The notes: generated from the sequence alone by a model not told the origin. 64,000 bases of DNA from a virus (IMGVR_UViG_3300020036_001703), one strand, 5' to 3'. Positions 21,190-43,920 are shown, counted from the stretch's first letter. Numbers and translations: made by a program.

Positions 21190-22185
21190 TCATTCATACA
21201 ATACTCCATATTTATTAAATAATTCTTTAGGATCTGAAGGATCGTCAATCCTTCGTTTCATCCAGCAGCATTTAAAATACAAATCAAGCATGAATTTCCA
21301 ATCTGCTTTAATTACTTTTTCATCCCAAGAAGTATATTCAAAAGGTTCAGGATACCATTCTTTATACTTTTGAATGACAATCTCAAGGCATTCTTTTACA
21401 GATTGAACATCGACTAAAAGATCGTATGCAGATTTAGCTCCAAAGACTGTATTAGCTAACTGATAGCCATGATAGTTATCTGAAGAATCTCCCCATAACC
21501 ATTGGAAGCATAAGAATTTAAGTCCATCACCTTTTACTGTAGGTGCCTTATATCTAAGCGAGCCAAGCTCGGGAACTTCTACAACTTTAGGTTTATCATC
21601 ATCAAAATTGTAGATAGAAAGTTTATCTCCTTGATAAGCATCTTTGTCTATAGTACTCACAATTGGAATATTACCTTTTGCAAGTTCTTCATACCCTCTA
21701 ATGCTTAAAGTGTCATCAGTTTCATGCCCTGAAGACTTTTTAGATCCGTGAACACGCTTCAAATAATCTTTAGCATCAGAAAGAAGTAAAGGGCGCATCA
21801 TAGTTTCACGTTGACCCTTATATCGACCTTTTGAGGGAACATCCTTAGCACTAGGTAAAGGTAAATCTAATCTGAAATTGTTTTCATCTTCAGCATAGAC
21901 TTCAAATTCATCAGCTTTAGTTTCTCTAACAATCTTTTCGATCTTCTGTCGAATAACTTTGAAACAGAATGCAGGAGATTCAGCTTCTTGTTGATCTTCA
22001 ATTGTGTAGTCTTCAGTAATTTCTTTATTCTTTTCTTTCATTACTTTCTTGAATGCTGTTCTAGTTTTGAAGCTTTTAGTAATTCCAGTTGGTTGATGAG
22101 TAACCAGAATACTTCTTTCTTCAGCAGCAGCAGCACACAAATAAGCAATAATGTCTCCATCAATTAATAGTATTCTTTTATTCAA
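21190..22185 (-). CDS. 5'-3' exonuclease / flap endonuclease (FEN, RNase H-like)
   Basis: N-terminal ILLIDGD..AY and STIDKDAYQ acidic motifs typical of T5 D15 / T4 RNase H family nucleases. Confidence 0.5.
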   Translation of the reverse strand: MNKRILLIDGDIIAYLCAAAAEERSILVTHQPTGITKSFKTRTAFKKVMKEKNKEITEDYTIEDQQEAESPAFCFKVIRQKIEKIVRETKADEFEVYAEDENNFRLDLPLPSAKDVPSKGRYKGQRETMMRPLLLSDAKDYLKRVHGSKKSSGHETDDTLSIRGYEELAKGNIPIVSTIDKDAYQGDKLSIYNFDDDKPKVVEVPELGSLRYKAPTVKGDGLKFLCFQWLWGDSSDNYHGYQLANTVFGAKSAYDLLVDVQSVKECLEIVIQKYKEWYPEPFEYTSWDEKVIKADWKFMLDLYFKCCWMKRRIDDPSDPKELFNKYGVLYE

Positions 22186-22585
22186 GATATTTCCTCCAAT
22201 CTAAATGAAATCTACAATTATTTGAAGCAAATTTAAATAATGGTGCAATCTCTGAATCAGAATATCCAGCTAAACCACAACCAATCTTGGTAACAACAAA
22301 AATAGCTTCAGGATTAGATCTAGCATAATGCAGAAAATCATCAACATAGTTTGAAATTTTACCAATCCCTAAAGTTTCAATATATCTGTCTTTAGTTGGG
22401 ATTGCATAAGATTGTTTATATGGGCCTACTCCAACTCCATATTGAGCACCAAAATATCGAAGTGCAACCTTTGCAGCACCTGCTCCATGTCTTCCAGCTT
22501 CATTAGATCCAAATACAAATATTTCATTTTCAGAAAGACTTGTAATATTCTCTTTATCGTAGTATTCAAACATTTGAACCTCCAA
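22178..22585 (-). CDS. hypothetical protein, possible LOG/SLOG-like Rossmann domain
   Basis: FVFGSNEAGRHGAGAAKVA...GVGVGP glycine-rich nucleotide-binding-type motifs. Confidence 0.4.
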   Translation of the reverse strand: MEVQMFEYYDKENITSLSENEIFVFGSNEAGRHGAGAAKVALRYFGAQYGVGVGPYKQSYAIPTKDRYIETLGIGKISNYVDDFLHYARSNPEAIFVVTKIGCGLAGYSDSEIAPLFKFASNNCRFHLDWRKYLE

Positions 22586-23140: not shown

Positions 23141-24091
23141 TTAGAACGGCGAATCTGTGTCATCAACAGGTGTCTTTTCAGGAAGGCTTGCAGACTTCAC
23201 AGGCTTAGACTCAGGAACAGGCTTTGGAGTTTCATCTTGAGAACCTGTACCTTCAAGTTGCTTTTGAATTTCACTACCTTCGTAGTTCTTAGCACGCTTG
23301 ATTGTATTAATGACATGGTTGCGGAGATTGTGCAGAGATTCTTCCGAATTTGGCGCAGTGAACTGAACACAGAATGGAGGGTTGACAATCTCTGGAGTTG
23401 ACTGACCACGACCCAAACCACCATTGAACTTGATATATTCAGTCAAATACTTCTTGCCCTTAACTTCTTTGAAGTAGATTTGAGTCTCAAACTGAAAAGC
23501 CTTACCAAGCAATTGATCAATATCACGAGGCTTGAAAACCTCATCAGATTTAATCAGTTTACAGGCAACAGCCATCTTGTGAAACAAGTGCTTCTTGTCA
23601 AAAGACCAAGCACCAAGAGAGGTGTTTTCCTTAAGAGGTGTAGGACGACCAACAACCATACCTACATCATGAATAAAGAATTGACCACCAAGCCACAGTC
23701 GAAGAGGTTGAGGATTAGATTCACCAAAGAATTGACCCTTGTCAATGATGATATCAGGGAAGTCTACAGATACTGCAACGGATTGAATAGGCTTTTGAGG
23801 CCAGCACTTCAGTCGAACAGGCTTCTTAGTTTCTTCATCAATACCATCCTTAAAATAAGTCAAAGGATGCTTTTCGATTGCTGCCGCTTCATCGGCTTCA
23901 TCACCATTGAACACAATTTCTGCATCATCTTGTTCTTGTTCACCAAGATCAACAATACCAGAAATATAGCCCGCCAAAACTTCCTTAGTTTCCAAACCAG
24001 CAGTCTCAACAAGATACTGATTCATCTTTTCATAATCAACCTTAGGCTGATCTGATTCACTACGAGTTGCTGCTGTAACATTAAATGCCAT
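23141..24091 (-). CDS. ssb: single-stranded DNA-binding protein, putative
   Basis: 316 aa ending in acidic tail ...DDTDSPF (compare bacterial SSB DDDIPF). Confidence 0.5.
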   Translation of the reverse strand: MAFNVTAATRSESDQPKVDYEKMNQYLVETAGLETKEVLAGYISGIVDLGEQEQDDAEIVFNGDEADEAAAIEKHPLTYFKDGIDEETKKPVRLKCWPQKPIQSVAVSVDFPDIIIDKGQFFGESNPQPLRLWLGGQFFIHDVGMVVGRPTPLKENTSLGAWSFDKKHLFHKMAVACKLIKSDEVFKPRDIDQLLGKAFQFETQIYFKEVKGKKYLTEYIKFNGGLGRGQSTPEIVNPPFCVQFTAPNSEESLHNLRNHVINTIKRAKNYEGSEIQKQLEGTGSQDETPKPVPESKPVKSASLPEKTPVDDTDSPF

Positions 24092-24270
24092 AAATATTCT
24101 CCATTAAAATTAATAAACTATTACGCTAGTTTAGGGCTTATATATTCCAGCTTACTCAAAGCTGGCCAATTTATTGTCCTGCTTACTATACTACAGGGTC
24201 AGTGCCCCCCGGCTAGGTCCAGGGCTTAGTATGCTTTCACATACTCTGACAGATCAAGCTTAATTATAAC

Positions 24271-26001
24271 TTACTTTGGAAGATTAGACAATAGTTCAGC
24301 ACGAATGTCATCCAAAGTATATTCAGTTACAATATGTCCACTATCGAAATAAGTTACAAAACAATCGTTATCTTGATCTGCTTCCGTAGCTTGTTCCTTC
24401 AAATAGAAACCTTTTTCATTCTTAAATACTGCAACCAAGCCCTTTGCACTCTTCTTTTCTCGGCTACCAGTCTTAGGATCTTTGTAAAGATCAACTGAAT
24501 AATCGTTGGCATCTTCATCGTAGAAAGTAGCATGAGTTGCTTTAATTGCCATGCTGAAGGTGTCACGAGTGTTGAATTGGTATGTGAAAGAACCTACACC
24601 AAAAATAACGTTCGTTGATGCAAAACCATTTTCCTTAAGGCGACTCAGAATTTCTTCCAGATTACGCATTGTAATAGAATCTCCATAAATCAGACCAATC
24701 TTAGAATCTAACTGCTTATAACCCTTAGCTGTTTCAGTACCTCCAAAAATATCCCAAAGAGTTTGAATAGAGCCTACAGCAACGTGTTTTGGAATTTCTT
24801 CGACAAGATCATATCCATAGCAGAAACCATCCCATGTATCATAGTGAGGTTCAATAATATGATATTTACCATCGACAATCACTACTTCATACTCATCTGC
24901 AATTTCAGCGTTAGTTAAACCTTGGGGATCTTTATCAGTGTCATAAATCTTATAACCAGCAATGATATGCAAAGGATTACCAGAATCAGGACGAATAACC
25001 AAACGAGTAGGAACAGGACTATCAGTTTCCTTACGAGACAACACAACATCTTTGATACGAGGAAGAATACTTGTCAGAACACCCCAATAATCAAAGGTAT
25101 CAGTAACGTAAGAGAAAATACCAGTTGGGAAAACCTTTGTAATCATCTTTACGATGAAGATTTGTTCAGCCTGTTCCAACAGCGGAATACTTTCATCCCT
25201 TGCAGTATCTTCATACTTACCAAATTTTTCCAGTTGATAAGAGATATTCAAGATATTAGAACTTGCAACACTGTGTTCAGTTGCTGGAACAGAACCAGCG
25301 ATGTAACCTTGTGGACTATAATACTTCTTTGCATAGGCAATAGTAGGAATATTATCTGAACCAATTGCAGACAGCAAGTGACCAAAGTTCACATTACCAT
25401 TTCGACCATCCAGCAAACCACGCAGAGAAAAGTCATGCATTTGATAACCAACAACAAATGGATTTGCTTCACCAACAGTTTCCAATGCATAAGCTTCCAA
25501 AACCTTACGGAATTCAAAAGCAACAGTTGCATTAGTAATCATAGGCCACAGATAATTACTGATCAGAGTTTCAAGATAATTGGTCAACCAACCAAAACCT
25601 GGAACAGTATTCTTGACTCGAATAAAAGGAACACCCATTGGAACCAAAGAACCTTCTGGTAGTGCTTGAACCTTGATTGGGAGATATTGCAAATTGTGCA
25701 GGCGAGTAATGTGATCAACTGAAATAACACCAGGACCAAAAATACCATCCATCATTTCAACATATTCATCTACAACTTCAGTCAAAGGACGAGAGAAGAA
25801 ATTACGATTAAAGCTATCAATCAAGTATTCCTTTGTCAAACCTTGGAAACCAGTAGCAACTACTTTACCATTATATGTACTCGTTCCCTTGAATCGTGAA
25901 TCGCTTCGCGCTGTCATATTACTTTCAAGAGTGTGCATAAGAGGATCGTACATAAAAGGGTGCCCAATCTTGTAGCAATCCGTGATAAACATTGGATTCA
26001 T
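24271..26001 (-). CDS. nadV: nicotinamide phosphoribosyltransferase-like (NAMPT/NadV or Namat)
   Basis: N-terminus MNPMFITDCYKIGHPFMY matches the NAMPT N-terminal signature (NadV MNPILNTDSYK...); 576 aa. Confidence 0.8.
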   Translation of the reverse strand: MNPMFITDCYKIGHPFMYDPLMHTLESNMTARSDSRFKGTSTYNGKVVATGFQGLTKEYLIDSFNRNFFSRPLTEVVDEYVEMMDGIFGPGVISVDHITRLHNLQYLPIKVQALPEGSLVPMGVPFIRVKNTVPGFGWLTNYLETLISNYLWPMITNATVAFEFRKVLEAYALETVGEANPFVVGYQMHDFSLRGLLDGRNGNVNFGHLLSAIGSDNIPTIAYAKKYYSPQGYIAGSVPATEHSVASSNILNISYQLEKFGKYEDTARDESIPLLEQAEQIFIVKMITKVFPTGIFSYVTDTFDYWGVLTSILPRIKDVVLSRKETDSPVPTRLVIRPDSGNPLHIIAGYKIYDTDKDPQGLTNAEIADEYEVVIVDGKYHIIEPHYDTWDGFCYGYDLVEEIPKHVAVGSIQTLWDIFGGTETAKGYKQLDSKIGLIYGDSITMRNLEEILSRLKENGFASTNVIFGVGSFTYQFNTRDTFSMAIKATHATFYDEDANDYSVDLYKDPKTGSREKKSAKGLVAVFKNEKGFYLKEQATEADQDNDCFVTYFDSGHIVTEYTLDDIRAELLSNLPK

Positions 26002-26817
26002 TTAAATTTCCTTTACAAAGTTAATTACATCAATGTCTTTTGACATTAAATTACAGACATAGATATTATCGAAATTTTCCTTCAGCTTGTCAATACCTGC
26101 TGTAAAGAAGCCATGTGTAATATACAACGATAATTCAGTAAGATTTGGTTGAGTTCTTCGAAGCATTTTAGCACAAGCTAAGAATGTTCCTCCGCCATCA
26201 CATAAGTCATCTACAATACAAGCACTTCCTTTAATCGTATTATATTCATAATCCATATATTTGATTGTAGAACCAATACGTTGCTTGTTTAAAGTCACCA
26301 GATTACTATCATCTAGTGTCACTTGGGCTATATATTTTGCTTTACCATGAGACCCTTTATCTGGAGCAATTAGGTAATCAAATACTGGAATTTTAGTCCA
26401 GATACATTCATATTGAGGAACATTTTGAAGTGTTGGAATTTCTTGCATTGCAACTTCACTATGCACATCCAAAGTATCAATTGATACTCCAGTAGTATTT
26501 AGAATACTTGCAAAAACTTGTAGTGCAAAAGATTCCCCAGGATGACATACACGATCTTGCCTTGAATATGGAAGGTAAGGAAGTCTAAGAACAATCCTCC
26601 CTTCTTCAATTCCAAGAATCTTTAAAGCATCAACTGCTTGAAGGGCAGCAAAGATATCATCATTAGATTCAAACTTACAATTTACTTCATAAGTAGCACC
26701 ACTTGGTTTAATCTTTTTAGGCTCAAGAAACTTAAATCCAACTTCACCTGTAGGAAATTTCCAAACCTTAATTGGAACTTCCTCGATGTGTACTGAAAAT
26801 TTCCTAACTTCAATCAT
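26002..26817 (-). CDS. ribose-phosphate pyrophosphokinase-like (Prs/Adps-like)
   Basis: PRPP-binding-type loop ACIVDDLCDGGGTF; abuts the NAMPT-like gene with no gap. Confidence 0.75.
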   Translation of the reverse strand: MIEVRKFSVHIEEVPIKVWKFPTGEVGFKFLEPKKIKPSGATYEVNCKFESNDDIFAALQAVDALKILGIEEGRIVLRLPYLPYSRQDRVCHPGESFALQVFASILNTTGVSIDTLDVHSEVAMQEIPTLQNVPQYECIWTKIPVFDYLIAPDKGSHGKAKYIAQVTLDDSNLVTLNKQRIGSTIKYMDYEYNTIKGSACIVDDLCDGGGTFLACAKMLRRTQPNLTELSLYITHGFFTAGIDKLKENFDNIYVCNLMSKDIDVINFVKEI

Positions 26818-26992
26818 TCTTTTTCACCCAGATAATTTTTGGAAGACAGCACTTATAAACTTCTTGAGAAGAATTACAACCTTCTTCAATCGGTTTATCG
26901 AAAAATTCACAACCTTCACAACTTCCAATTTCTGGAGTAAGAAGTGCAGCAGGTTGTGTCACATAAGTTACATCTTTAAATTTGAATTCCAT
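26810..26992 (-). CDS. small Cys-rich protein
   Basis: 60 aa, AAAGGAAAT RBS, CEGCE...C...CC. Confidence 0.4.
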   Translation of the reverse strand: MEFKFKDVTYVTQPAALLTPEIGSCEGCEFFDKPIEEGCNSSQEVYKCCLPKIIWVKKND

Positions 26993-27073
26993 CGTATTTC
27001 CTTTCGATTATTATCGAACCTGCAGAGTTAATGTAGGAGAGTGTACCAATAACTTGTGAGTGTGTCAATAACC

Positions 27074-29191
27074 TTAGTGGACATCTTTCCAACTGCCATT
27101 AAAAGCAATCTTACCTTCACCTGCAAGGGGTAGGCTCAACTTCAGAAACTCACCAGCTTTCACAATTGCCTTGACACTGTGCTCTTTAACCCAGTCCTGA
27201 GATCCCTCCTCACATTCCCATGAGTACTCGTCATGCACCATTGAGATACGCTTTACCTTCTTGCCGTTGATAAGGTAATAAGGCCTACCAAGGTCATCAA
27301 GGTACATATCACCTAACCATGTGTCCATCAAGCAAGCTGCGTAGGACATGCTGATAGCACCAAGGCCTTGCCCTAGACAGGATAGTAGCACATTCTTTCC
27401 TCTAACAGAGACTAATCGCCCATCAATAGCAGGAATGTGCTTCTTTTTACCTGTTGTTTCAAAGTAACTCTCAACTGCTTTCTTCAATGCACCGAGCCCT
27501 TTGTTCTTTTCCCAGTAGTTATCAAAAGCTTTTTGACCGTCAACTTTTGACAGACCTAAACTACTTGCAAGTTTAGGGGCACCACCACCGAAGGCTAGTA
27601 AATACGCACCCGTCTTCGCCTTATTTCTCCATGTCTTAAACTTAGGATCTTCCTTGTTTTCAGGATTATTTATATCAAACTCTTTATGCAAGTGTGGAAA
27701 GAATGCGAAGGCATTGAAACTATGTGGATCACCTTCTGTTTGCATTCTAGCAAATGCACCGCCATCATATTTGAAAGTATAGTGGCTAAGTGTTCGATTC
27801 TCTAGGGCCGCCGCGTCAGTACCAGCATACCAATTACCTTCATCAACAACAAACAAATCCCGCATTTCAGAACCAAGCAAAACCTTTGGGTCAGCTTTAG
27901 GGCAATTTACCACTGTCTTATGCTTCACCCTAGAAGTAGGGGCGTAGCCGCTAATCTCTGCACTTAGTCTACCATCAAAACTGATTCTCCAATTATTAAG
28001 CCAGCCTGTAACAACACCAAGGCGATTCCTATATGAAAGAAACTTAACAACCTTTGCTGGAATCTCTCCGTTAAGCTTCAACAAGTTAGGGCAGAGTTGT
28101 CCAGCGTGATTAATTTTAGGGGTTGTTTTAATAAACTTCCCTTTCTCATCACGGATATTCTTACCATCAGACCCTTTCTTAAAATTCCAGTGATCTTCCG
28201 AAGGTTCCCATCCGTGTTGAATAAAATAGTCCTTCATTTCTACACTATCGTCAATCTCCATAGGGAGCTTAACTGGGAAAACTGCATTTGCTTCAAGTGT
28301 AGCAGACAGACCATAAGCGTAGATAATGCCGTCAATGAGCTTTGCTTGGTGCTTATCCAACCACTTCTGCATATTCGCACTAAGATCACCAGCTTTAGTA
28401 TAAGGTTTTGCTGGCATCTTATACAAGGCTTGTTCAGCAGTCTTCAGTTCACGCTTAGGGAGAAGAGGGTCAACCTCATCTTTTAGAATCTGCATTTTTT
28501 CTTGGATATGTGCCTGTAGAGCTTTAGCCCTTTCTGTATGGAACTTGACACCAGTGTATGCTTGTGCAGAGTAAAGCCAATAGTCCTTCTGCATTTGTCT
28601 AAATGATGGGTGAACCCACTCGGAGTACAAAGCCTGAGCTTCTTTCCATAGTTTTTTTACTTCCCTAATTGCACTATCAGTATCTCGATCACAGTAAGGA
28701 ATCATAAGCTCATGCCAAAAAGAAAACTCATGTCCTTTAGGATCGGAGTCTTGCATAGCTCCAGCACGAATCAAACTATTTCTATAGTTGATCTTACCAT
28801 CCTCGTTCTCTTCGCCACCTGACACATACTCCAATGAGTGTTTTGGTGAATTAGGGTGTAGAAACATACTAAGAACAAAACCATCTACAAACTGTACTTG
28901 TTTATCTCCTAAGAAGTCCTTCCCATTCTTTCCGACTTTTGGTTTGATATCAAAGAACTTCCAAAGCATCCAAAGATCATACCCAAGGGTGTTCCACCCT
29001 ACAACTTCTCCACCATCTTCAAAAGAGTTAATCCATTTCAGTAATTTTTGTTTAGTAGAGTCTTTACCATCCCTAAAAGGGAATAGGCTGAGTTCTCTTG
29101 TACCATCACAAGATTTCAGCCGAATATACCAAATCTTCTTAGAAAGAAGATAAAGGTTATCAGCCTCGATGTCAAATCCCCATCCTTTCAT
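27074..29191 (-). CDS. DNA polymerase, family A (T7-like)
   Basis: Exo I GFDIEAD at the N-terminus; motif C ...MVHDEY...; 705 aa. Confidence 0.8.
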   Translation of the reverse strand: MKGWGFDIEADNLYLLSKKIWYIRLKSCDGTRELSLFPFRDGKDSTKQKLLKWINSFEDGGEVVGWNTLGYDLWMLWKFFDIKPKVGKNGKDFLGDKQVQFVDGFVLSMFLHPNSPKHSLEYVSGGEENEDGKINYRNSLIRAGAMQDSDPKGHEFSFWHELMIPYCDRDTDSAIREVKKLWKEAQALYSEWVHPSFRQMQKDYWLYSAQAYTGVKFHTERAKALQAHIQEKMQILKDEVDPLLPKRELKTAEQALYKMPAKPYTKAGDLSANMQKWLDKHQAKLIDGIIYAYGLSATLEANAVFPVKLPMEIDDSVEMKDYFIQHGWEPSEDHWNFKKGSDGKNIRDEKGKFIKTTPKINHAGQLCPNLLKLNGEIPAKVVKFLSYRNRLGVVTGWLNNWRISFDGRLSAEISGYAPTSRVKHKTVVNCPKADPKVLLGSEMRDLFVVDEGNWYAGTDAAALENRTLSHYTFKYDGGAFARMQTEGDPHSFNAFAFFPHLHKEFDINNPENKEDPKFKTWRNKAKTGAYLLAFGGGAPKLASSLGLSKVDGQKAFDNYWEKNKGLGALKKAVESYFETTGKKKHIPAIDGRLVSVRGKNVLLSCLGQGLGAISMSYAACLMDTWLGDMYLDDLGRPYYLINGKKVKRISMVHDEYSWECEEGSQDWVKEHSVKAIVKAGEFLKLSLPLAGEGKIAFNGSWKDVH

Positions 29192-29202: not shown

Positions 29203-30849
29203 TTAGAAACTCTCACCCTCCTGTGACAAAACTACTTCCCATGTCTCAGGATCTAACGTAAACACATCTGCAATACCTAGGGAGTCACCAAATCGTGTCT
29301 TAAGTACTTTGATTCTAATACGACCTCTGGAGAAGTCAGGAAGAATTTCAGGCTCAAGAGCTAAAATATTCCAACTACATTGCTCAAGTGCTGCAGAACC
29401 TCTAGCAGACTCTTTACGAACATTTACCCAGAAAGGCTCACCTTCTTTACCCTTTGGAGGTAGGAACTGATGAGAGTCTGAGCGATTGATGTGACAAACT
29501 ACTAGCAAGTGTACATCATTAGCAGCACAAAAACTAGCCAAAGCTGTCATAACAATATCTAAATCTTTACGTTCGTTATCTGACTCATTCCCACTCACAA
29601 CCATCGACAAGTGATCAAGCACGATAAACTTACAACCTTCCACTAGAACCATATGGCGAACCTTCTGCATCAGAGTAGATGTAGGCATACTTCCAAAATG
29701 ATCCAGCAAAATAAGCTTATCATTATTCACAATGTCGTTGTAGACACAGCTAATAGCTTCTTCACTCGCAACTGATAAAGGATTCCGCTTGAACTTGAGG
29801 TAATTTACCTTCAGTTTTGAAGCAATGAGCCGTTGAATAGTCTCCTTGTTACCTTCTTCCAAGAAAATCATCCCAAGCTTATAACCAGCATCCATACAAG
29901 CAGAAGCCAGGATTGAACACACAGTTGTTTTACCCACGTTTGAGGGGGCAAGCAGAAGAGTGAGTTCCTTGTCTCTAAGTCCATGTAACCTTTGCATAAG
30001 TTTAGGAAAACAAGGTACTAGCACACCTTGAGGTTGTGGAGCAATAATCTGTTGTAAAGAAACACTGCTAGCCTTAACAACTTTCTCAGTAGAGAATGGT
30101 TGTTTACCAAAAGATACAAGCTTTGCTAGTTCTGGGCTCTTACCTGCCTGCATGTAATCTGACGCATCTTTAAAACCATCTGATGGCAGAAGAGTCATTA
30201 GACTAATCCCTGTACCAACAAATGCTGCTGCAACAGCTTCACGGGCCTCGTGACCCTTCATGATGCCCTTCTTAATCTCAGCAGGGGTACTATAGTCATC
30301 ATCAAAGAAAATTGTCAGAGCTTCGTATGACTTTGTAAACTGCTCATTATGCAGAACAGCTTCAACAGCATTCTTAGTCCCCATAGGGATAGAAACTACA
30401 GTAGGTTCAATACCTTCATAGCGTGTGCCCTTAACGCTGTCAACACAAGATTGGTAAACGCTAAGAGAATCCCATTCACCTTCAGTGATGATGAGGTTAG
30501 TTCGCTTACGATTAAGTTCTTCAACAACCTGCTGACCGAATAACTTATTACTGATGCTGACAGAGCCTACAGTTGTCCAGTGATACTCGTGTGACTTATC
30601 TACAGTAATATCCTGCTTCTTATACCCTACAACCTTACCTTTCTGGTTATATGATGGAAAGTAGTAAGCCTCAATTGTCTTACCATCTTTCTCTGACACA
30701 CCCGCTTTAACTCCAAACCTCTTGCAAGTTTCTTCAGAAATACCTCGTTCTTGGCAAGCCTTGAAAGGGTACTTCTCTACATCAGAAACGGACTCAACCT
30801 TCTTATTTGGATTAAAACTCGTGAATACTCTTTGTTTCTTTTCATACAT
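29203..30849 (-). CDS. primase-helicase (T7 gp4-like)
   Basis: Walker A LLAPSNVGKTT; RecA/DnaB-like C-terminal half; Cys-containing N-terminal region. Confidence 0.8.
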   Translation of the reverse strand: MYEKKQRVFTSFNPNKKVESVSDVEKYPFKACQERGISEETCKRFGVKAGVSEKDGKTIEAYYFPSYNQKGKVVGYKKQDITVDKSHEYHWTTVGSVSISNKLFGQQVVEELNRKRTNLIITEGEWDSLSVYQSCVDSVKGTRYEGIEPTVVSIPMGTKNAVEAVLHNEQFTKSYEALTIFFDDDYSTPAEIKKGIMKGHEAREAVAAAFVGTGISLMTLLPSDGFKDASDYMQAGKSPELAKLVSFGKQPFSTEKVVKASSVSLQQIIAPQPQGVLVPCFPKLMQRLHGLRDKELTLLLAPSNVGKTTVCSILASACMDAGYKLGMIFLEEGNKETIQRLIASKLKVNYLKFKRNPLSVASEEAISCVYNDIVNNDKLILLDHFGSMPTSTLMQKVRHMVLVEGCKFIVLDHLSMVVSGNESDNERKDLDIVMTALASFCAANDVHLLVVCHINRSDSHQFLPPKGKEGEPFWVNVRKESARGSAALEQCSWNILALEPEILPDFSRGRIRIKVLKTRFGDSLGIADVFTLDPETWEVVLSQEGESF

Positions 30850-35779: not shown

Positions 35780-36631
35780 ATGTTTGATAAAATGAAAGAA
35801 GTTCATACTTTGAATACAAAGGGTATGGACTATGTTTTTACAGATTTGCATGGTAATTTTGATTTGTTTCAGAAGGCTTTGGACATTCTTCAGTTTGATC
35901 CTTCTAAAGATCGTGTTACTATTGCTGGAGATTTGTGTGATCGAGGCCCAGAAAGTCTTCGTTGTTTGAAGCTGTTGCTTGAAGATTGGGTAATTGCTGT
36001 TCCTGGCAATCATGAACAAATGTTTGTTGAATACGTTAAGAATCCAAATTCTCCATATGGTAGAGCTTTCATGTACAACGGTGGACAATGGATTTATGAT
36101 TATCCACCTTTCATGTGGGAAGAAGCTGGTATCAATGAAGTGACTGAGAAGATTCAAACTCTTCCTCGTATGCTTACATTCAAGGATACTGACAATAAAA
36201 TCAAATGTCATGTTCTACATGCTGAATTAAATGTTGGATCTATTGAACATCAAATCACAAATGCAGACATTGAAGATGAAGCCACTCTGAAACAAATGCT
36301 TACTCTATCTTCACTTGATGGTGAGTATAGTTTTTGGGGACGAGCAGTATTTTGTGATTTTTATAATCATCCAGTACCTGACTATAGTATGCTTTCTCAA
36401 AAGGGTATTGATCGTCTTAAAAAGTTTTCTCATCCTGATCTCAGTTTGATTATTTCTGGTCATACTATTATGCAGAAACCATTGTGCTTTGGTAACTTGT
36501 TAAATCTTGATACCGGAGCATTTAGAGGTTCTTTGTCTGGATACTGTATTCAAACTAATACGGTATTCACTTTGAATGAAAATGCTTCAGACTTTGTGTA
36601 TGAAGTAAATGAAATTAACCTAAATGACTAA
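35780..36631 (+). CDS. Ser/Thr protein phosphatase-type metallophosphoesterase (lambda PPase-like)
   Basis: TDLHGN...IAGDLCDRGPES...VPGNHEQ calcineurin-like motifs I-III. Confidence 0.8.
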   Translation: MFDKMKEVHTLNTKGMDYVFTDLHGNFDLFQKALDILQFDPSKDRVTIAGDLCDRGPESLRCLKLLLEDWVIAVPGNHEQMFVEYVKNPNSPYGRAFMYNGGQWIYDYPPFMWEEAGINEVTEKIQTLPRMLTFKDTDNKIKCHVLHAELNVGSIEHQITNADIEDEATLKQMLTLSSLDGEYSFWGRAVFCDFYNHPVPDYSMLSQKGIDRLKKFSHPDLSLIISGHTIMQKPLCFGNLLNLDTGAFRGSLSGYCIQTNTVFTLNENASDFVYEVNEINLND

Positions 36632-36641
36632 AGGAAATAAA

Positions 36642-36956
36642 ATGACACAAAAAGTACCTGCTATTCTAAAAAGCAAAAAGAAGATTAAGATCCAAGAAGT
36701 TAAACCTAGCTTTACTCATGCTGAAATTCAGCGGATTCACTCCTTTATGCGAAAAAATCTGCGAGATTTGAACTTCTTTATTCGTATTGCAAAGGGTGAA
36801 ATCACTGAAGCATGGGATTGTGCTATTCCTGGTACAATTGAAGGTGAATTTGCTTATGAACGCTTGAACGGTCTTCGTGAAGCTTTGCGCAGTATGAAAA
36901 CGGAAGAACAAAATATGATTCAGATCCAGCGTAAGCTGAAAAAGATGATGTCCTAA
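36642..36956 (+). CDS. hypothetical protein
   Basis: 104 aa, AAAGGAAAT RBS. Confidence 0.45.
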   Translation: MTQKVPAILKSKKKIKIQEVKPSFTHAEIQRIHSFMRKNLRDLNFFIRIAKGEITEAWDCAIPGTIEGEFAYERLNGLREALRSMKTEEQNMIQIQRKLKKMMS

Positions 36957-36957
36957 A

Positions 36958-37158
36958 ATGAAAGACAAACAAGGGAAAGCTCTTGAAGTAAAAGACAATG
37001 TCAAGTTCTGTACTAGGTTTGGTGAAGTTGTCGGATTTATACAACATATTTCCGACAATTTTGCTAAGGTTTGTTTGCAAGTTCCTGGGTTTGGAAGTTA
37101 TACTTGGAACAAGTCAAGTAAAGAGCTTGAGAAGATTAACGAATGGTGTAAAGTTTAA
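36958..37158 (+). CDS. hypothetical protein
   Basis: 66 aa. Confidence 0.4.
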   Translation: MKDKQGKALEVKDNVKFCTRFGEVVGFIQHISDNFAKVCLQVPGFGSYTWNKSSKELEKINEWCKV

Positions 37159-37167
37159 GGAGATACG

Positions 37168-38190
37168 ATGGAACGTAAGATGGCTACTGTTCGTAGGATT
37201 GATGACATTCAACCTATCATTGGTGCAGACTTGATTGAAGCTGTAAAAATTGGTGGTTGGAATGTTGTTGCTCAGAAAAGCATGGGATACAAGGCAGGTG
37301 ATCTCGTAATTTATTGTGAAATTGATTCTTTCATTCCCAATGAAATTGCACCCTTCTTGACCCAAGGAGGTAAAGAGCCAAAGGAATACAAAGGAGTCAA
37401 GGGTGAACGACTACGAACTAAAAAGCTGAAGGGTGTTGTATCTCAAGGGCTGCTGCTACCATTGAGTGTTGTGTTTGAACTAGATCCTCAAACAAGTGTA
37501 GATATCGTTGGTACAAATGTTTCAGAAATTCTTGGTGTCCAAAAATATGAACCTCCTGCGGAATTCCTAGCTGCTAACGCAAAGGGTTCTTTCCCTTATT
37601 TCATCCCCAAGACTGATCAAGAACGAATTCAAAACCTCAAGAATAAATACAATGATTGGTATGTTGAGAGTAACACTTGGGAAGTAACTGAAAAGTTACA
37701 TGGAAGTAGTATGACGGTTTATTTCAAGGATGGAGAAGTTGGTGTATGTTCTCGTAATCTTGAATTGAAGGAAGACTTGGATAATACATTCTGGAAGACT
37801 GCACATTCTTCAGGTGCTGTTGAAGCTTTGAAATCTCTTGGCAAGAACATGGCAGTTCAAGGTGAATTAATTGGTCCTGGGATCAATGACAATATTTATA
37901 AGTTGACTGATTTCAAGTTCTATGTATTTAATATCTTCGACATTGATAAACAACAATATTTCGTTCCTTCTCACTGTAGAAGTGTTGTAGAAAAACTACA
38001 GCTTCTGCATGTTCCTGTGTTATACTCTGAAGTATTGCAACAAGACAACATTGAAGATGTGCTTTCGTATGCAGAAGGTAAGTCTCAACTAAATATCACA
38101 ACCGAAAGAGAAGGTCTTGTGTTTAAGAAGTTTGATGCAAGTGAAAGTTTTAAGGCAATTTCGAATCGTTGGCTCATCAAGCATGAATGA
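37168..38190 (+). CDS. ATP-dependent RNA ligase, Rnl5/DraRnl-like (N-terminal OB plus nucleotidyltransferase)
   Basis: Motif I EKLHGSS (adenylated Lys); motif IV EREGLVFKK; terminal lysines ...KAISNRWLIKHE; N-terminal OB-like domain; 340 aa. Confidence 0.6.
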   Translation: MERKMATVRRIDDIQPIIGADLIEAVKIGGWNVVAQKSMGYKAGDLVIYCEIDSFIPNEIAPFLTQGGKEPKEYKGVKGERLRTKKLKGVVSQGLLLPLSVVFELDPQTSVDIVGTNVSEILGVQKYEPPAEFLAANAKGSFPYFIPKTDQERIQNLKNKYNDWYVESNTWEVTEKLHGSSMTVYFKDGEVGVCSRNLELKEDLDNTFWKTAHSSGAVEALKSLGKNMAVQGELIGPGINDNIYKLTDFKFYVFNIFDIDKQQYFVPSHCRSVVEKLQLLHVPVLYSEVLQQDNIEDVLSYAEGKSQLNITTEREGLVFKKFDASESFKAISNRWLIKHE

Positions 38191-38199
38191 AGGATTATT

Positions 38200-38415
38200 A
38201 TGAAAGTCAAAGAACTAATTGAAAAGCTCCAAGAATGTGATCCTGATGCTATCGTAGTTAAATCAGAAGACTTTGAATATTTTGTAATTGGAACTGTTTC
38301 TTCAATCTGGCTTACTGAAATCGAATACCAAGAAGAGTATGGTACTGAAGTTCAATTAGAAGATTGTGAAGAAGGTGATACTGGATCATTTCCTGCTGTT
38401 TATCTAGGATTTTAA
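38200..38415 (+). CDS. hypothetical acidic protein
   Basis: 71 aa. Confidence 0.4.
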   Translation: MKVKELIEKLQECDPDAIVVKSEDFEYFVIGTVSSIWLTEIEYQEEYGTEVQLEDCEEGDTGSFPAVYLGF

Positions 38416-38419
38416 ATTA

Positions 38420-38758
38420 ATGTCTAAAGTTAGATATCTGATTATTGCTAAAGCTTATGACCGAAAAGGTAGACTTATCTCTGTAGGTCATAATCAATAC
38501 AATAAATCTCATCCATTGCAGAAGTCTTATGCACAAAGAGTCAATCTTGAGTGCAAGGATAAGCTTCATGCTGAGATTCAATGTTTGATCCGTAGTGGTG
38601 ATAAAGTTGTGTATCGTTTAACAGTAGAAAGGTATCTAAAGGATTCAACAATGGCTATGGCTAAACCTTGCCCAATTTGTCAAGAAGCTATTAAGGATTT
38701 TGGAGTTAAGATTGTTGAATATACAACTGAAAATGGTTGGATAAAGGAGAAAGTATGA
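38420..38758 (+). CDS. cytidine/deoxycytidylate deaminase-fold protein (small)
   Basis: HAE ... PCPIC zinc-binding signature; 112 aa. Confidence 0.6.
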   Translation: MSKVRYLIIAKAYDRKGRLISVGHNQYNKSHPLQKSYAQRVNLECKDKLHAEIQCLIRSGDKVVYRLTVERYLKDSTMAMAKPCPICQEAIKDFGVKIVEYTTENGWIKEKV

Positions 38759-38982
38759 TTCATTCACAATATGGTATTGATCTTGAAGATTTGCAATTAT
38801 TGTGTAAAGGTAAAATTCAGTGGAGAAAATGCCCAGATTGTGATGTGAATGGACTACAATATTGGGATGGTAAAACAGGTGAAGGAGTTAATACCAGTCC
38901 TTCTGGTATTGATCCTGAATGGCTTGAACGTGGTGGTTGTGAAACTTGTCTTGGTCTTAGTTATCAACTATTTTATGTTTAA
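38755..38982 (+). CDS. small zinc-binding protein
   Basis: ATGA-coupled start; CPDC...C.TC. Confidence 0.4.
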   Translation: MIHSQYGIDLEDLQLLCKGKIQWRKCPDCDVNGLQYWDGKTGEGVNTSPSGIDPEWLERGGCETCLGLSYQLFYV

Positions 38983-38993
38983 GGGAAGTATAA

Positions 38994-39437
38994 ATGGCTA
39001 GTCAAGAATCTTTAGATTATGTTTATATGCAAACAGCATTACTTCATTCTAAGTTGTCTTACGCAAAGCGTACAAAAGTTGGCGCCTGCTTAGTTACTAG
39101 AACAGGTATTATTGTCCCTGGTGTAAATGGTTTACCTAAAGAACTTGGTAATGAGTTAGAATACTCAGAATATTTCTTTGATACAAAAGAAACTAAACTT
39201 ATTACCAAGCCAGAAGTAGTGCATGCTGAACAAGCTTGCCTCAACAAAAGTGCAAGAGAAGGTGTATCTGTGGAAGGAAGTACTCTTTACACAACGCTTT
39301 CTCCTTGTGCGCAATGTGCAAGTAACATGACCTGGCTTAAAGTTCAAAGAGTTGTTTATCTACAACAGTACAGAGATACAAGAGGTCTTGACTTGTTGAA
39401 TCAAGCTGGTATCATTGTGTCTAAGTTAGATTTTTAA
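38994..39437 (+). CDS. dCMP deaminase
   Basis: VHAEQACL ... SPCAQCA signature; 147 aa. Confidence 0.7.
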   Translation: MASQESLDYVYMQTALLHSKLSYAKRTKVGACLVTRTGIIVPGVNGLPKELGNELEYSEYFFDTKETKLITKPEVVHAEQACLNKSAREGVSVEGSTLYTTLSPCAQCASNMTWLKVQRVVYLQQYRDTRGLDLLNQAGIIVSKLDF

Positions 39438-39447
39438 GGAGAAAGAA

Positions 39448-39708
39448 ATGCCAGTGTTGACTTTGTGTATTGTATTCTTTATTTGTGTGTCAGTCATTTA
39501 TTTATATTGCAGACTCACATCGAAAGGAAGTAGAATGACTCGATTGGAACCGGGAGATATTGTAATGTGTATCCGTGAAGTTAAATTCATTGATGGTACA
39601 ATTCACACTCAAGGTCAGTTGATTGAAGTAACTCAATGGAATTTGGATTACTTTGATTGTTTCATCGGTTCTCAGTATCAATTTGTAAGGAAGAAAGATG
39701 AATATTAA
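39448..39708 (+). CDS. small membrane protein
   Basis: N-terminal hydrophobic helix. Confidence 0.4.
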   Translation: MPVLTLCIVFFICVSVIYLYCRLTSKGSRMTRLEPGDIVMCIREVKFIDGTIHTQGQLIEVTQWNLDYFDCFIGSQYQFVRKKDEY

Positions 39709-40018
39709 AGAAAAATTTATCAAGTTTGCAGATAACAAATGGGGGAAGTCTCGTGATGGTATTTGTCAAACTGAAAGGTTTAAATCTTATTATGAAGTTT
39801 GGTGTCTAGCAATTGCTAGTTATCTAATATTCGGTGATGTGGATGAAGAAACAACTCCTGTAATGAAAGATGGTAATATTGAAAACTTTACAATTAAAGG
39901 TTTTCGATGTAATTGTGGTTGTAACGTATTTCATAAGCCGGATGATAAGAATTTGAATCTATATCAATGCAACAGTTGTGATGCTAATTATTTAGGGGAA
40001 GACTGCAATGAAAGTTAA
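39698..40018 (+). CDS. Cys-rich protein
   Basis: CNCGCNVFH...CNSCDANY. Confidence 0.4.
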   Translation: MNIKEKFIKFADNKWGKSRDGICQTERFKSYYEVWCLAIASYLIFGDVDEETTPVMKDGNIENFTIKGFRCNCGCNVFHKPDDKNLNLYQCNSCDANYLGEDCNES

Positions 40019-40244
40019 ATATAATTTAGGTGATTCCATACCAGTTGGGTATAGAAATACAGAAAATAATATTACTGAATTATTTTCGACAACAGAACAT
40101 GCTTGGGGTTTGGTAGACAAGAAAACCAAAGTACTTAAATCAGTAAAACTTTTTCGTACTCGTAAAGAAGCTAGACACATGAAGAAATATTTTAAGTTGG
40201 ATCAATACGAAGTAATTAAAATAATTTTGAATTATGAGGTTTAA
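40008..40244 (+). CDS. hypothetical protein
   Basis: 78 aa. Confidence 0.35.
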   Translation: MKVKYNLGDSIPVGYRNTENNITELFSTTEHAWGLVDKKTKVLKSVKLFRTRKEARHMKKYFKLDQYEVIKIILNYEV

Positions 40245-40694
40245 ATGACTGCACTTGAATTGTGTAAGAACTTTAAAGAAAATACCTCTAAAGTTCAACT
40301 TTGGCTGAGTATGCTTGGAAAACAGTATTACGGTGGTGGTGGTGGTATTGGAAGAGTAGTTTGTTTCAGACCAGCAACAATTGAAATTTACTACCAATTC
40401 AATAATGGAGATACTAGCTATCATCCTGTTCCATCTGAGTTTAAAGAGCATATTCAAGAAGTTTTGCTTGAAAAGAGTGAAGAAATCCTAAAAGAAGCTT
40501 TTGCAAAAATGCAACAACGTCAAAAAGAACTTGCACAGAGGGCAGTCGAGGATTACAATTCAGTCATTGAAGACATTAAGAAAGAGGTTCTGGCTGTAGA
40601 TGATGCTACAATCAGAGTAGGAATGTATAAACAAGGCATTAAGTTGCAAGAGTTAAAGGAACAACGACATATGGAATTGTATGCTACAAAATGA
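40245..40694 (+). CDS. hypothetical protein
   Basis: 149 aa, GGGGG loop then coiled coil. Confidence 0.45.
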   Translation: MTALELCKNFKENTSKVQLWLSMLGKQYYGGGGGIGRVVCFRPATIEIYYQFNNGDTSYHPVPSEFKEHIQEVLLEKSEEILKEAFAKMQQRQKELAQRAVEDYNSVIEDIKKEVLAVDDATIRVGMYKQGIKLQELKEQRHMELYATK

Positions 40695-40977
40695 AACTCA
40701 ATCTTCTATTTCTGAATATACAAGCCTAAGACGTGGCAAATCAGAGATGCCTGACATGCTATATCTTTGGAATAAGATTAAGAAGGAAATCCCGACTGAT
40801 TCTATTCCAACTGTGACTAAAGAGGACCTTAATGAAATCTATGAAAAATATCGTGGAAGAGTAATTGATTTAGTTTGGTATGAAGAACAGGATAATCTTA
40901 CTGAAGAACCAAAGAAAAAGAATCTTCAACATGGTCCTCTTCAAAAGGGTAAAAAAGGTAAACTTAAAAGGTGGTAA
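40681..40977 (+). CDS. hypothetical protein
   Basis: 98 aa, basic C-terminus. Confidence 0.4.
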   Translation: MLQNETQSSISEYTSLRRGKSEMPDMLYLWNKIKKEIPTDSIPTVTKEDLNEIYEKYRGRVIDLVWYEEQDNLTEEPKKKNLQHGPLQKGKKGKLKRW

Positions 40978-40978
40978 T

Positions 40979-41185
40979 ATGAAACGAACTGGTCAAGTAG
41001 AATTCAGTCGGCACAAAGTTATTCTTATGGAATATGAACGTGGTTGGGGTTCTAAAGTTGATGAAATTATTTATTTTGAGAATGAACTCTATGCTAAAAC
41101 TTTTGTAATTGATTTCAACTCTGAAAATGATAAAGATTCAGTTCCTGATTGGTATATGACAGCAGAGTATCAAGTTATTGGTTAA
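40979..41185 (+). CDS. hypothetical protein
   Basis: Internal ATG with AAGGTGG RBS. Confidence 0.4.
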   Translation: MKRTGQVEFSRHKVILMEYERGWGSKVDEIIYFENELYAKTFVIDFNSENDKDSVPDWYMTAEYQVIG

Positions 41186-41199
41186 TTAAAGGAAATAAT

Positions 41200-41391
41200 A
41201 TGGTAAAAGTAGTAGGTCAAGATCCATCTACAGTTAAGAAAGCACTTTGCAAAAACTGTGGTGCCATTCTTGAGTATTATAAAATTGATGTAAAAGAATA
41301 TCACGGTGTTGATTATTCTGGAGGGTCTAGGGGTAAGGAATGGATTGATTGTCCACAATGTAGTAACGAAGTTATTTTGAAAGCATGGTAA
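41200..41391 (+). CDS. zinc-ribbon protein
   Basis: CKNCGA...CPQCSN; AAAGGAAAT RBS. Confidence 0.4.
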   Translation: MVKVVGQDPSTVKKALCKNCGAILEYYKIDVKEYHGVDYSGGSRGKEWIDCPQCSNEVILKAW

Positions 41392-41392
41392 T

Positions 41393-41962
41393 ATGAAAAG
41401 GTACTTCACATCAGACATCCACGCTTTTCATAAGAACATTTGCAAGTTCACTGATCGTAAGTTAGCAACTTCTCAAGAAAATCATGAACAATGGTTAGTT
41501 GACATTTGGAATTCGCAAATAGAGAATGAAGACCTTGTGTATATTCTTGGTGATATTTCATTTGGTAAGTATCAACAAACTGCTGATTTTCTTGAAAGTC
41601 TAAATGGGCAAAAGATTGTAATCAAAGGCAATCATGATAATGAACAGCACTTGAATCATCTTTTGCATGATAAGATGATCCTGTCTTGGAAGCTTTATGA
41701 TGAAATTGATATCCAAGGTGTGAAGGCTTGTCTGATGCACTTTCCTATTACATCCTGGCACAAGCAGAACTATGGCAGTTGGATGCTTTATGGGCATTGT
41801 CATGGTAAGATGCAAGGGCAAGGAAAGACTGTTGACGTAGGTATTGACTCAGCTTATAATGTGTTTGGTGAACATAGATTGTTCTCTGACGAAGACATTG
41901 TAGCTTTTATGCAACAAAGACAAATTTACATTGCAGACTTGCATAGAAAAGAAGTACAATAG
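41393..41962 (+). CDS. calcineurin-like metallophosphoesterase
   Basis: SDIHAFH ... ILGDISFG ... IKGNHDN ... HGHCHG. Confidence 0.7.
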   Translation: MKRYFTSDIHAFHKNICKFTDRKLATSQENHEQWLVDIWNSQIENEDLVYILGDISFGKYQQTADFLESLNGQKIVIKGNHDNEQHLNHLLHDKMILSWKLYDEIDIQGVKACLMHFPITSWHKQNYGSWMLYGHCHGKMQGQGKTVDVGIDSAYNVFGEHRLFSDEDIVAFMQQRQIYIADLHRKEVQ

Positions 41963-41993
41963 ACTCATCAAACAAGTTAACGAAAGGGAAATA

Positions 41994-42374
41994 ATGCAAC
42001 ACAAATTTAAAGTAGGTGACAAAGTTAAGATGTCAGAAGAAGGTATCAAATCTGATATTTGCACTTCTGTAAAAGCTGATGCTATTATGACAGTGAAGCG
42101 TTGTACAGATTGGAGACGTGACCCTGCTTATATTCTGGAGTTTGAAGGTCAATCAAAAGGCATTTTCGCGGAATGTGAAATTGAGCTAGTTAAACCAAAG
42201 AAAGAACCTAAAGTAATTGAGATTACAAAATGGGCTCTTGTAAATAAACTAGCTCCAGTTGTAATTGACCCTGAACTTTTCTATACAAGGGCTGCTGCTC
42301 GTGCAGCAAAGAAGATGGATGTTTTAGGTGCTTCCCTTAAAGTAGTCAAAGTCAAAATTCAATATGAGGTTTAA
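41994..42374 (+). CDS. hypothetical protein
   Basis: 126 aa; GAAAGGGAAAT RBS. Confidence 0.45.
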   Translation: MQHKFKVGDKVKMSEEGIKSDICTSVKADAIMTVKRCTDWRRDPAYILEFEGQSKGIFAECEIELVKPKKEPKVIEITKWALVNKLAPVVIDPELFYTRAAARAAKKMDVLGASLKVVKVKIQYEV

Positions 42375-42605
42375 ATGATTAATGAACATGACATCAAAGA
42401 TTTCCCTTATTCACCTTACGCCGATACAGTTCTTCTTTATGAACTAAAGAATGATTCTTATTTTAAGTTTCAGGATTGTAGTAAGGTTTATCATTTTGTA
42501 AAACCAGATGGAATGTATTCTATTTGTTATGATTTACAAGGGAATCTGTTTCATTTTGCTGTGTTTTCTAAGGTTATTGAAGTAAAGGAACCTACTAATG
42601 GTTGA
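42375..42605 (+). CDS. hypothetical protein
   Basis: 76 aa. Confidence 0.4.
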   Translation: MINEHDIKDFPYSPYADTVLLYELKNDSYFKFQDCSKVYHFVKPDGMYSICYDLQGNLFHFAVFSKVIEVKEPTNG

Positions 42606-42816: not shown

Positions 42817-42817
42817 T

Positions 42818-42976: not shown

Positions 42977-43170
42977 CTAGCAAGAAAAGACCCGCTAAAC
43001 CTATGGACAATTTTCCCTAGTTGTTTATGTTCACTTCAGTGTAAAATGATACAAGCTGTTAAGGTTTGTACTTGTATCTGGTCACTCTAAAACCTGTAGA
43101 CTGTCGTCTACTCAAATTGAAGCCATGTGTGGTGGATAAGAGACAAGATGGTTTGAAGTCAATTTAGGGG

Positions 43171-43552: not shown

Positions 43553-43553
43553 T

Positions 43554-43907: not shown

Positions 43908-43920
43908 TGGAGGTCATTAG

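Follow-up and report, generated by a model that had tools for sequence, protein, structure and literature searches.

Two abutting genes at positions 24271 to 26817 of the viral sequence IMGVR_UViG_3300020036_001703 encode one protein resembling ribose-phosphate pyrophosphokinase (Prs) and one resembling nicotinamide phosphoribosyltransferase (Nampt), and raise the question of whether such a pair serves ordinary salvage of nicotinamide adenine dinucleotide (NAD+) or rebuilds NAD+ by a route of its own. The stretch analysed here, hereafter the window, comprises 64,000 nt, and its tail, DNA polymerase, primase-helicase and ribonucleotide reductase (RNR) genes place the pair in a phage. Phage 'Prs + Nampt' operons have been found to be misannotated, the Prs-like enzyme (Adps) making ADP-ribose pyrophosphate (ADPR-PP) and the Nampt-like enzyme (Namat) joining ADPR-PP and nicotinamide into NAD+, which together constitute NAD+ reconstitution pathway 1, NARP1 (bioRxiv 10.1101/2024.02.11.579819). 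According to the same work, NARP1 is present in 859 phages (4.3%), for 97% of the genes in the Adps clade a homolog of Namat lies no more than ten genes away, phage Nampt of the NARP2 type has an Nmnat (nicotinamide mononucleotide adenylyltransferase, also NMNAT) as companion in 94%, and no phage carries both pathways (bioRxiv 10.1101/2024.02.11.579819). NARP3 pairs a transporter of the PnuC type with a bifunctional enzyme resembling NadR (PMC13464706). NARP1 operons often bear add-ons that turn other derivatives of ADP-ribose (ADPR) into ADPR, namely a Macro phosphatase or RyDEP; the variant NARP1-AP has the order Adps-Adpp-Namat with the Macro phosphatase within two genes, and a Macro phosphatase occurs in 15% of NARP1 phages.

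In this study, we provide evidence that the abutting pair is very probably, with a probability that we put at roughly 0.87, a divergent but canonical NARP1 pathway. This reading draws on what can be observed directly, namely gene structure, the families of both proteins, their diagnostic motifs, placement by tree and profiles, conserved synteny and the lack of an NMNAT among window ORFs of at least 120 aa, and the enzyme activities and the counter-defence phenotype are predicted by homology to the experimentally studied systems of phages Bas63, SPbetaL1, FADO and ICP1. In the proposed mechanism, a host defence of the SIR2, TIR or SEFIR type would split NAD+, leaving ADP-ribose and nicotinamide; Adps (271 aa) would move the beta,gamma-pyrophosphate of ATP onto the distal ribose of ADP-ribose (ADPR + ATP -> ADPR-PP + AMP), and the 576-aa Namat would exchange the pyrophosphate (PPi) for nicotinamide (ADPR-PP + nicotinamide -> NAD+ + PPi). 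NAD+ would in this way be regenerated directly, without a nicotinamide mononucleotide (NMN) intermediate and with no NMNAT required.

Arrangement of the gene pair

Three closely packed open reading frames (ORFs) of 60, 271 (Prs-like) and 576 aa (Nampt-like) lie on the minus strand of the window. The putative ADP-ribose pyrophosphokinase gene, adps, occupies 26002..26817 (minus strand; 271 aa, containing ACIVDDLCDGGGTF), and the putative nicotinamide ADP-ribose transferase gene, namat, occupies 24271..26001 (minus strand; 576 aa, MNPMFITDCYKIGHPF...). The TAA stop of adps is followed directly by the ATG of namat, and with zero spacing the two genes stand as close together as the proximity reported for NARP1 genes calls for. 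On the other side of adps lies a small Cys-rich ORF (26810..26992, minus strand; 60 aa, five Cys), whose TGA overlaps the adps ATG within ATGATTGA, giving an overlap of 8 nt. adps and namat are probably co-transcribed and translationally coupled. An initial annotation of this DNA had described Nampt-like and Prs-like genes placed head to tail with no spacer, and both the ORF list and the junctions agree with it, as do the Pfam, NCBIfam/TIGR and PHROG matches given below with the families that it assigned.

Namat-like features of the 576-aa protein

The 576-aa protein matches Pfam NAPRTase (1.6e-23), NCBIfam NF006629 (409.5 bits, cutoff 405) and PHROG 448, 'nicotinamide phosphoribosyl transferase' (2.6e-162). 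Its top matches in the PDB are 9W5X/9W5W (364 bits, 9.6e-108), which are crystal structures of SPbetaL1 Namat (PMC12774641), and the scores are about 160 bits for the NAMPT of human and rodents and 124 bits for Xanthomonas Nampt, so that the closeness to Namat over Nampt is one of bit scores. Identity to the Namat of SPbetaL1, FADO and Bas63 is 37.6-38.1%, in alignments over most or all of the length.

Namat enzymes possess a selectivity clamp, made of a helix with the motif GS-X-Phi1-X-Phi2-X-Phi3-TRD (aromatic X) and a variable loop; the selectivity-clamp helix (SCH) motif, absent from true Nampt, is the adenine-stacking signature that gives the preference for ADPR-PP (PMC12774641). Residues 470-480 of the 576-aa protein (24562..24594, minus strand) read GSFTYQFNTRD and fit the published consensus, with aromatic residues at positions 3, 5 and 7. 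The regular expression used was derived from that consensus, with Met allowed at Phi3 so that Bas63 matches, and Xanthomonas Nampt (7yqo), taken as a negative control, reads GGALLQKVDRD at the same position. At 22 of the 23 ligand-contact positions of SPbetaL1 Namat, the residue in the 576-aa protein is identical or conservatively substituted. Among the core residues, F189, R192, D215, R306 and D308 of SPbetaL1 correspond to F191, R194, D216, R337 and D339, and R306 is essential in SPbetaL1 Namat (PMC12774641). The motif ATEHSV contains H243 (25273..25275, minus strand), and TEHS is kept in the window protein, in four reference Namat and in three relatives; from the position of the motif and the published conservation of the histidine, we infer that H243 is the equivalent of the catalytic His phosphorylated in enzymes of the Nampt family.

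The protein is 85 residues longer than SPbetaL1 Namat (491 aa), and the difference stems from two insertions. The first (24775..24963, minus strand) adds about 50 residues after the RPDSG motif, where there are 63 residues against 14 in SPbetaL1; it is an insertion relative to the SPbetaL1 and ICP1 Namat, and is common to Bas63 and to the related contigs L012 and L014, in which it is longer (83-91 residues). The second (25159..25254, minus strand) adds about 26 residues after ATEHSV (32 residues, against 6 in SPbetaL1 and 21 in Bas63) and is absent in L012, L014, ICP1 and FADO, its 32-residue form being common to the related contig L010 only.

Two further observations concern this family. PDB entries 9ke8/9keo, named 'nicotinamide phosphoribosyltransferase', score 312 bits to the window protein and have an intermediate sequence, GAQTYQRNTRD, at the SCH position, which fits neither the Namat consensus nor typical Nampt; we found no publication describing these entries. 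In L012 and L014, Adps is 49-54% identical to that of the window and the L012 single-stranded-DNA-binding protein (SSB)-like protein 64%, but Namat is just 38-40% identical, which is the distance at which the Namat of Bas63 or SPbetaL1 stands. This mosaicism suggests that namat alleles have been exchanged or else that rates of evolution are very uneven.

Adps-like features of the 271-aa protein

The 271-aa protein matches Pfam Pribosyltran_N (2.5e-07), TIGR01251 (4.7e-30) and PHROG 619, 'ribose-phosphate pyrophosphokinase' (2.4e-62). Its TIGR01251 score of 104.6 bits lies under the cutoff of 113, in the range spanned by validated Adps (Bas63 138.5, SPbetaL1 106, FADO 96.5), and E. coli Prs scores 422.7; against all Prs equivalog models the protein is far under the cutoffs, as validated Adps are.

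Features that distinguish Adps from Prs are a remodelled and conserved PP (donor-binding) loop, the catalytic Lys of a beta-hairpin and the loss of the alpha11-alpha12 module, the last of which has been called the 'defining evolutionary signature' of Adps (PMC13586617). All three have counterparts in the 271-aa protein. By residue alignment, its PP loop, DDLCDGGGTF (26182..26211, minus strand), is of the Adps type, the corresponding sequences being DDICDGAASF in ICP1, DDICDGGRTF in Bas63 and DDMIDTGGTL in E. coli Prs. The putative catalytic lysine, K178 (26284..26286, minus strand), falls in the same aligned column as ICP1 K185 and SPbetaL1 K162, both of which are essential by mutation (PMC13586617; bioRxiv 10.1101/2024.02.11.579819). 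The C-terminal alpha11-alpha12 module is missing: past the TH[GAP] motif there are 35 residues, where E. coli Prs has 64, and the protein ends where validated Adps end. A residue map against the ICP1 Adps structure shows that R86, H119, D153, D203, D204 and D207 are kept as well.

Adps proteins are highly divergent among themselves, which makes this a hard case for placement by similarity. In pairwise BLAST, the Adps of Bas63 and of ICP1 scored 104 and 85.5 bits, E. coli Prs 75.5 bits, and the Adps of the Bacillus phages SPbetaL1 and FADO 57 and 51 bits. A profile hidden Markov model (HMM) built from the four validated Adps scored the protein at 119.9 bits and a Prs HMM at 51.5 bits; the Adps-minus-Prs difference ranges from +89 to +218 for the validated Adps (leave-one-out), is about -580 for true Prs, and was positive in 25 of 25 sampled members of the lineage. 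The comparison of the Prs-like protein with Adps and canonical Prs, which the initial annotation had put forward as a check, accordingly falls on the Adps side. In a neighbour-joining tree rooted on Prs, 147 of 200 bootstraps nested the window lineage inside the clade that the four validated Adps span, and all 200 left Prs monophyletic. Since the Prs outgroup was narrow, consisting of gammaproteobacterial sequences of 80-99% identity, membership in the Adps clade, apart from canonical Prs, is placed with moderate support.

Comparison with characterized NAD+ pathways

Among the closest of the characterized systems is that of Bas63 (Escherichia phage JohannRWettstein, genes 79-80; bioRxiv 10.1101/2024.02.11.579819); of all validated Adps, that of Bas63 matches the 271-aa protein best in pairwise comparison (30% identity, 104 bits). 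Both have the order adps then namat, a PP loop of the form DD[IL]CDG..TF, an SCH motif and a long Namat (593 aa in Bas63) with a large insertion after RPDSG, and Bas63 is a lytic phage with a host of the Gram-negative type, as here. They differ in that identity is just 30% for Adps and 38% for Namat, the two genes of Bas63 are separated by a 45-nt spacer, gene 78 is unrelated to the upstream small ORF of the window, 21 residues rather than 32 follow ATEHSV (6 in SPbetaL1), and the genome backbone is another one, the window having a 705-aa, T7-like family A DNA polymerase. With Bacillus phage SPbetaL1, for which NARP1 has been biochemically reconstituted (PMC12774641), the window shares the SCH but for one conservative change (GSFTYQYNTRD in SPbetaL1), the ligand contacts of Namat, and the alignment of Adps K162 with K178. 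SPbetaL1 Namat, in contrast, has 491 aa and lacks both insertions, Arg40 of its selectivity-clamp loop (SCL) corresponds to Ser35 of the window, and its Adps is weakly similar (57 bits) and has 'SS' in the PP loop in place of 'CD'. The Adps of Vibrio phage ICP1 (NrsA), known from an apo crystal structure and from cryo-EM with substrate and product (PMC13586617), belongs to the same PRPS-like fold family and has likewise lost alpha11-alpha12, and its R87, H121, D161, K185, D212, D213, C215, D216 and F221 are conserved in the window; however, identity is 29%, F18 and F92 are V9 and C91 in the window, F223 is Ala, and its PP loop reads GAAS where the window has GGGT.

NARP2 (Nampt and Nmnat of KVP40), NARP3 and NARP1-AP are, like the predicted pathway, means by which phages replenish NAD+ when defences deplete it. 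NARP2, however, needs Nmnat and has no Prs-like partner, whereas the window has the Prs-like partner and no Nmnat was found among its ORFs of at least 120 aa; NARP3 differs by its transporter and NadR-like enzyme, neither of which was detected among these ORFs. NARP1-AP has both core enzymes in common with the window pair, but its Pfam-detectable Macro phosphatase lies at most two genes away, whereas the only macro-fold gene of the window lies four genes away and belongs to another family.

NARP1 is established and widespread (about 4% of sequenced phages) and has already been described, so the general picture is unchanged by this locus, which is a further, divergent member in an uncultured phage lineage. 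What the locus adds is an extension of NARP1 to a lineage seen mostly in metagenome assemblies, in which the published SCH motif and the rules on the Adps PP loop and C-terminal truncation would still classify such distant members correctly. It also leads to the prediction that the host population carries NAD+-depleting defences.

Alternative readings of the locus

While the evidence above argues for NARP1, classical salvage, of the NARP2 kind or as a metabolic booster, has to be weighed against it. Under such salvage the Prs-like protein would make phosphoribosyl pyrophosphate (PRPP), the Nampt-like protein would make NMN from it, and NAD+ would be formed by host NadR/NadD or by a phage NMNAT encoded outside the window. 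The database names of both proteins, Prs and Nampt, are those expected for salvage, and Namat keeps some PRPP-dependent synthesis of NMN in vitro, in reactions without ADPR-PP (PMC12774641; bioRxiv 10.1101/2024.02.11.579819). Moreover, the window is part of a genome, contigs with related Adps reaching about 80-87 kb, so an NMNAT could lie beyond it; judged from gene content, what the window mainly lacks appears to be the module of structural genes upstream of the tail tube gene. Several sequence features also weigh against NARP1. The 271-aa protein is very divergent (at most 30% identical to every validated Adps), raw BLAST puts it nearer E. coli Prs than the Adps of SPbetaL1 or FADO, with a score against Prs similar to those against some validated Adps, and its nesting among Adps is moderate (74%) with a solely gammaproteobacterial outgroup. 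The adenine-anchoring F18 and F92 of ICP1 are replaced by V9 and C91, with R87 kept as R86; these two positions differ also in the Adps of Bas63, SPbetaL1 and FADO, and since they vary among validated Adps they are not family-defining. In Namat, the third residue of the SCL (S33-D34-S35-R36-F37) is Ser and not the typical Arg, Lys or Tyr, and this is the single exception among the ligand contacts, SPbetaL1 R40 aligning to S35, which is followed by R36 and F37. The SCL supplies an adenine-stacking residue, usually Arg, Lys or Tyr at the third position and otherwise the fourth residue, in a variable loop whose positions shift (PMC12774641).

Against these points stands the Namat-specific SCH motif of the 576-aa protein, which true Nampt lacks. 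The 271-aa protein falls under all curated Prs thresholds in the manner of validated Adps, lacks alpha11-alpha12 and has a remodelled PP loop, and its validated homolog SPbetaL1 Adps gave no product in a Prs-type assay (bioRxiv 10.1101/2024.02.11.579819). The usual companion of a NARP2-type Nampt is Nmnat and not a Prs-like gene, and among the phages surveyed none carried both pathways (bioRxiv 10.1101/2024.02.11.579819). Among the 49 other window ORFs of at least 120 aa, no Pfam match was found to CTP_transf_like/NMNAT, NadR, PnuC, Nudix or Macro, which agrees with the initial annotation, where no NMNAT had been seen. NARP3 was ruled out because neither PnuC nor NadR occurs among these ORFs, and the Nmnat of NARP2 is likewise missing from them, so that both pathways are excluded within the window. 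NARP1-AP was ruled out by hmmscan of the genes flanking the pair, which are the 60-aa ORF and the DNA polymerase gene on the upstream side and, downstream, the gene for the 316-aa SSB-like protein and an ORF of 64 aa; none of these gave a Macro match, the families considered being PF14519, PF01661 and PF20016, for which the published screen used HHpred. Classical salvage is thus highly improbable. The SCH motif, Namat bit scores, PP loop, C-terminal truncation, catalytic Lys, tree, profiles and adjacency agree on NARP1 rather than NadV salvage, as the initial annotation had proposed, and NARP1 is supported because every sequence-level discriminator that could be tested agrees, the third residue of the SCL and the F18/F92 positions being undecided either way.

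A different departure from a two-gene NARP1 would be a pathway of three parts, fed or protected by a further protein as it is by Adpp or RyDEP; this could be the 60-aa Cys-rich protein or a 135-aa macrodomain-fold protein encoded at 22178..22585 (minus strand; PHROG 2072, N4 gp14-like family), four genes downstream of namat. The 60-aa protein might for example be a zinc-binding inhibitor of NADase effectors or a regulator or partner of Adps, and the macrodomain might, in addition or instead, supply ADPR from ADPR-1''-phosphate or from ADP-ribosylated targets, in which case it would be a non-orthologous equivalent of the Adpp of NARP1-AP. Published add-ons of NARP1, namely the Macro phosphatase and RyDEP, lend this idea precedent. 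In all close relatives, the 60-aa ORF immediately precedes adps and the overlap is again 8 nt. Its homologues in place have 95% identity in L095-L097 and 42% in L010/L011, with the five Cys kept, and the Cys pattern SCEGC...GC...CC..KIIWV is kept in a relative whose Adps is about 69% identical; the identity of the relative to the window is 42% for the 60-aa ORF, about 70% for Adps and 83% for Namat, indicating that the small ORF evolves faster. On the other hand, one homologue has lost a Cys and another a segment, just five close homologues were found among 5.8 billion proteins, no Pfam, PHROG or NCBIfam match was obtained (a Uteroglobin match, in a Pfam search at E up to 10, was rejected as being at chance level), and the AlphaFold2 model was uninformative, with a predicted local distance difference test score (pLDDT) of 44. 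L012 and L014 keep Adps-Namat but lack the ORF, its slot being taken by unrelated small ORFs. The 60-aa ORF is therefore best read as a real, fast-evolving and lineage-restricted accessory gene, judging from its sequence comparisons, and not a core or conserved part of the pathway; a functional link to NARP1 is conceivable given the precedents of Adpp and RyDEP, though unsupported. The tight coupling to adps and the richness in Cys that the initial annotation had pointed out are borne out by the overlap and the five Cys, respectively; the extra component that it had seen in the ORF is missing from more distant relatives that keep Adps-Namat.

The 135-aa protein has no Pfam match and contains the motifs FVFGSNxxGxHGxGAA and IGCGLAG; its model (pLDDT 95.4) confidently has the macrodomain fold, with DarG, TARG1/C6orf130 (TM 0.70) and Poa1p, each of which binds ADP-ribose, as best PDB matches. 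The gene tracks the cassette, occurring with it in the window and in L010, L012 and L014, the three relatives covering the region, and both are absent from the syntenic region of Pseudomonas phage vB_PsaM_M1. Nevertheless, we did not adopt it as Adpp, since it lies outside the distance of two genes on either side, belongs to the N4 gp14-like family, which is found in 470 phage records (mostly N4-like phages in a spread sample), and has DarG as its best fold match, which suggests an independent anti-DarTG role. N4-like phages are not known to carry NARP1. A role in counteracting DarTG or in other de-ADP-ribosylation seems at least as likely as one as Adpp, and on the basis of its model the protein is a candidate anti-DarTG or ADPR-processing counter-defence gene. 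Taken together, these points make the three-part pathway unlikely beside the two-gene NARP1, and the 60-aa ORF and the macro-fold gene are candidates for further counter-defence factors related to NAD+ or ADPR.

Genome context and relatives

The Adps-Namat pair is embedded in the replication module of the phage, where it stands between the genes for DNA polymerase and an SSB-like protein. Upstream lie a primase-helicase gene (29203..30849, minus strand) and the gene for the T7-like family A DNA polymerase of 705 aa (27074..29191, minus strand). Directly downstream of namat lies the gene for the 316-aa SSB-like protein (23141..24091, minus strand; PHROG 2544, function unassigned), which has an acidic C-terminal tail (...DDTDSPF) like SSB or T7 gp2.5 and occupies the same position in the relatives and in vB_PsaM_M1 (41% identity), and which is probably, on these features, a phage single-stranded-DNA-binding protein. 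Further downstream follow genes for a putative 5'-3' exonuclease, endonuclease VII, a dGTP/dATP diphosphohydrolase-like protein, ThyX and RNR.

A near-identity DNA search of the locus against phage genomes returned just matches of 38-41 nt, to nadV genes of Ounavirinae, and with DNA matches this short the lineage has no close cultured relative among these genomes. The best match of the DNA polymerase is that of vB_PsaM_M1 (89 kb; 43.7% identity), and among 50,697 phage records nothing exceeds about 35% identity to the Prs-like protein. Metagenomic relatives are plentiful, and several of their contigs measure about 80-87 kb, related contigs of 81.8 kb and 83.6 kb being ERR10482436_20588 and Ga0654614_0000018. 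Wherever related contigs were examined, the genes for Adps and Namat abut or overlap each other and stand at the same place in a syntenic backbone. vB_PsaM_M1 shares this backbone without the pair, which identifies the pair as an accessory cassette, that is, a unit inserted into an otherwise conserved replication module.

One relative shows a further difference in the module. In L095 (7278..9985), whose Adps is 92% identical, ORFs of 575, 177 and 162 aa take the place of the 705-aa polymerase gene, and the middle one carries an HNH_3 domain; this may be a polymerase gene that an HNH homing endonuclease has interrupted. The polymerase gene of the window is intact.

Transcription signals

A consensus scan gave, in the spacer that separates the small ORF from the DNA polymerase gene, a candidate sigma-70-like promoter, TTGACA-17-TACACT with an upstream TG (27040..27068, minus strand). 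Promoter-like sites in the region numbered 14, against a shuffle expectation of 12.7 +/- 3.4, and because this is no excess the candidate is a suggestion from its position and not functional evidence. The counts from the scan for promoters and terminators were likewise not above those of shuffled sequence, and the boundaries of the transcription unit are for that reason a guess. The spacer between namat and the SSB-like gene (24092..24270) comprises 179 non-coding nt with two short hairpins and two copies of AAGCCCT[AG][AG]AC, a sequence with no other copy in the window; its coding strand contains no canonical intrinsic terminator, and the spacer may be a regulatory or processing site.

Other genes in the window

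Elsewhere in the window there are tail genes, an ATP-dependent DNA ligase gene, an RNA ligase gene (37168..38190; PHROG 968) and three tRNA genes on the plus strand, Met-CAT (44175..44249), Leu-TAA (53928..54012) and Lys-TTT (54017..54091). Three ORFs in 35780..63459 match calcineurin-like Metallophos (PF00149), among them those at 35780..36631 (plus strand; Pfam 8.8e-15) and 57574..58335 (plus strand; PHROG 1649, 'metallo-phosphoesterase'); the phage phosphatases recently tied to NARP1 are, unlike these, of the Macro fold.

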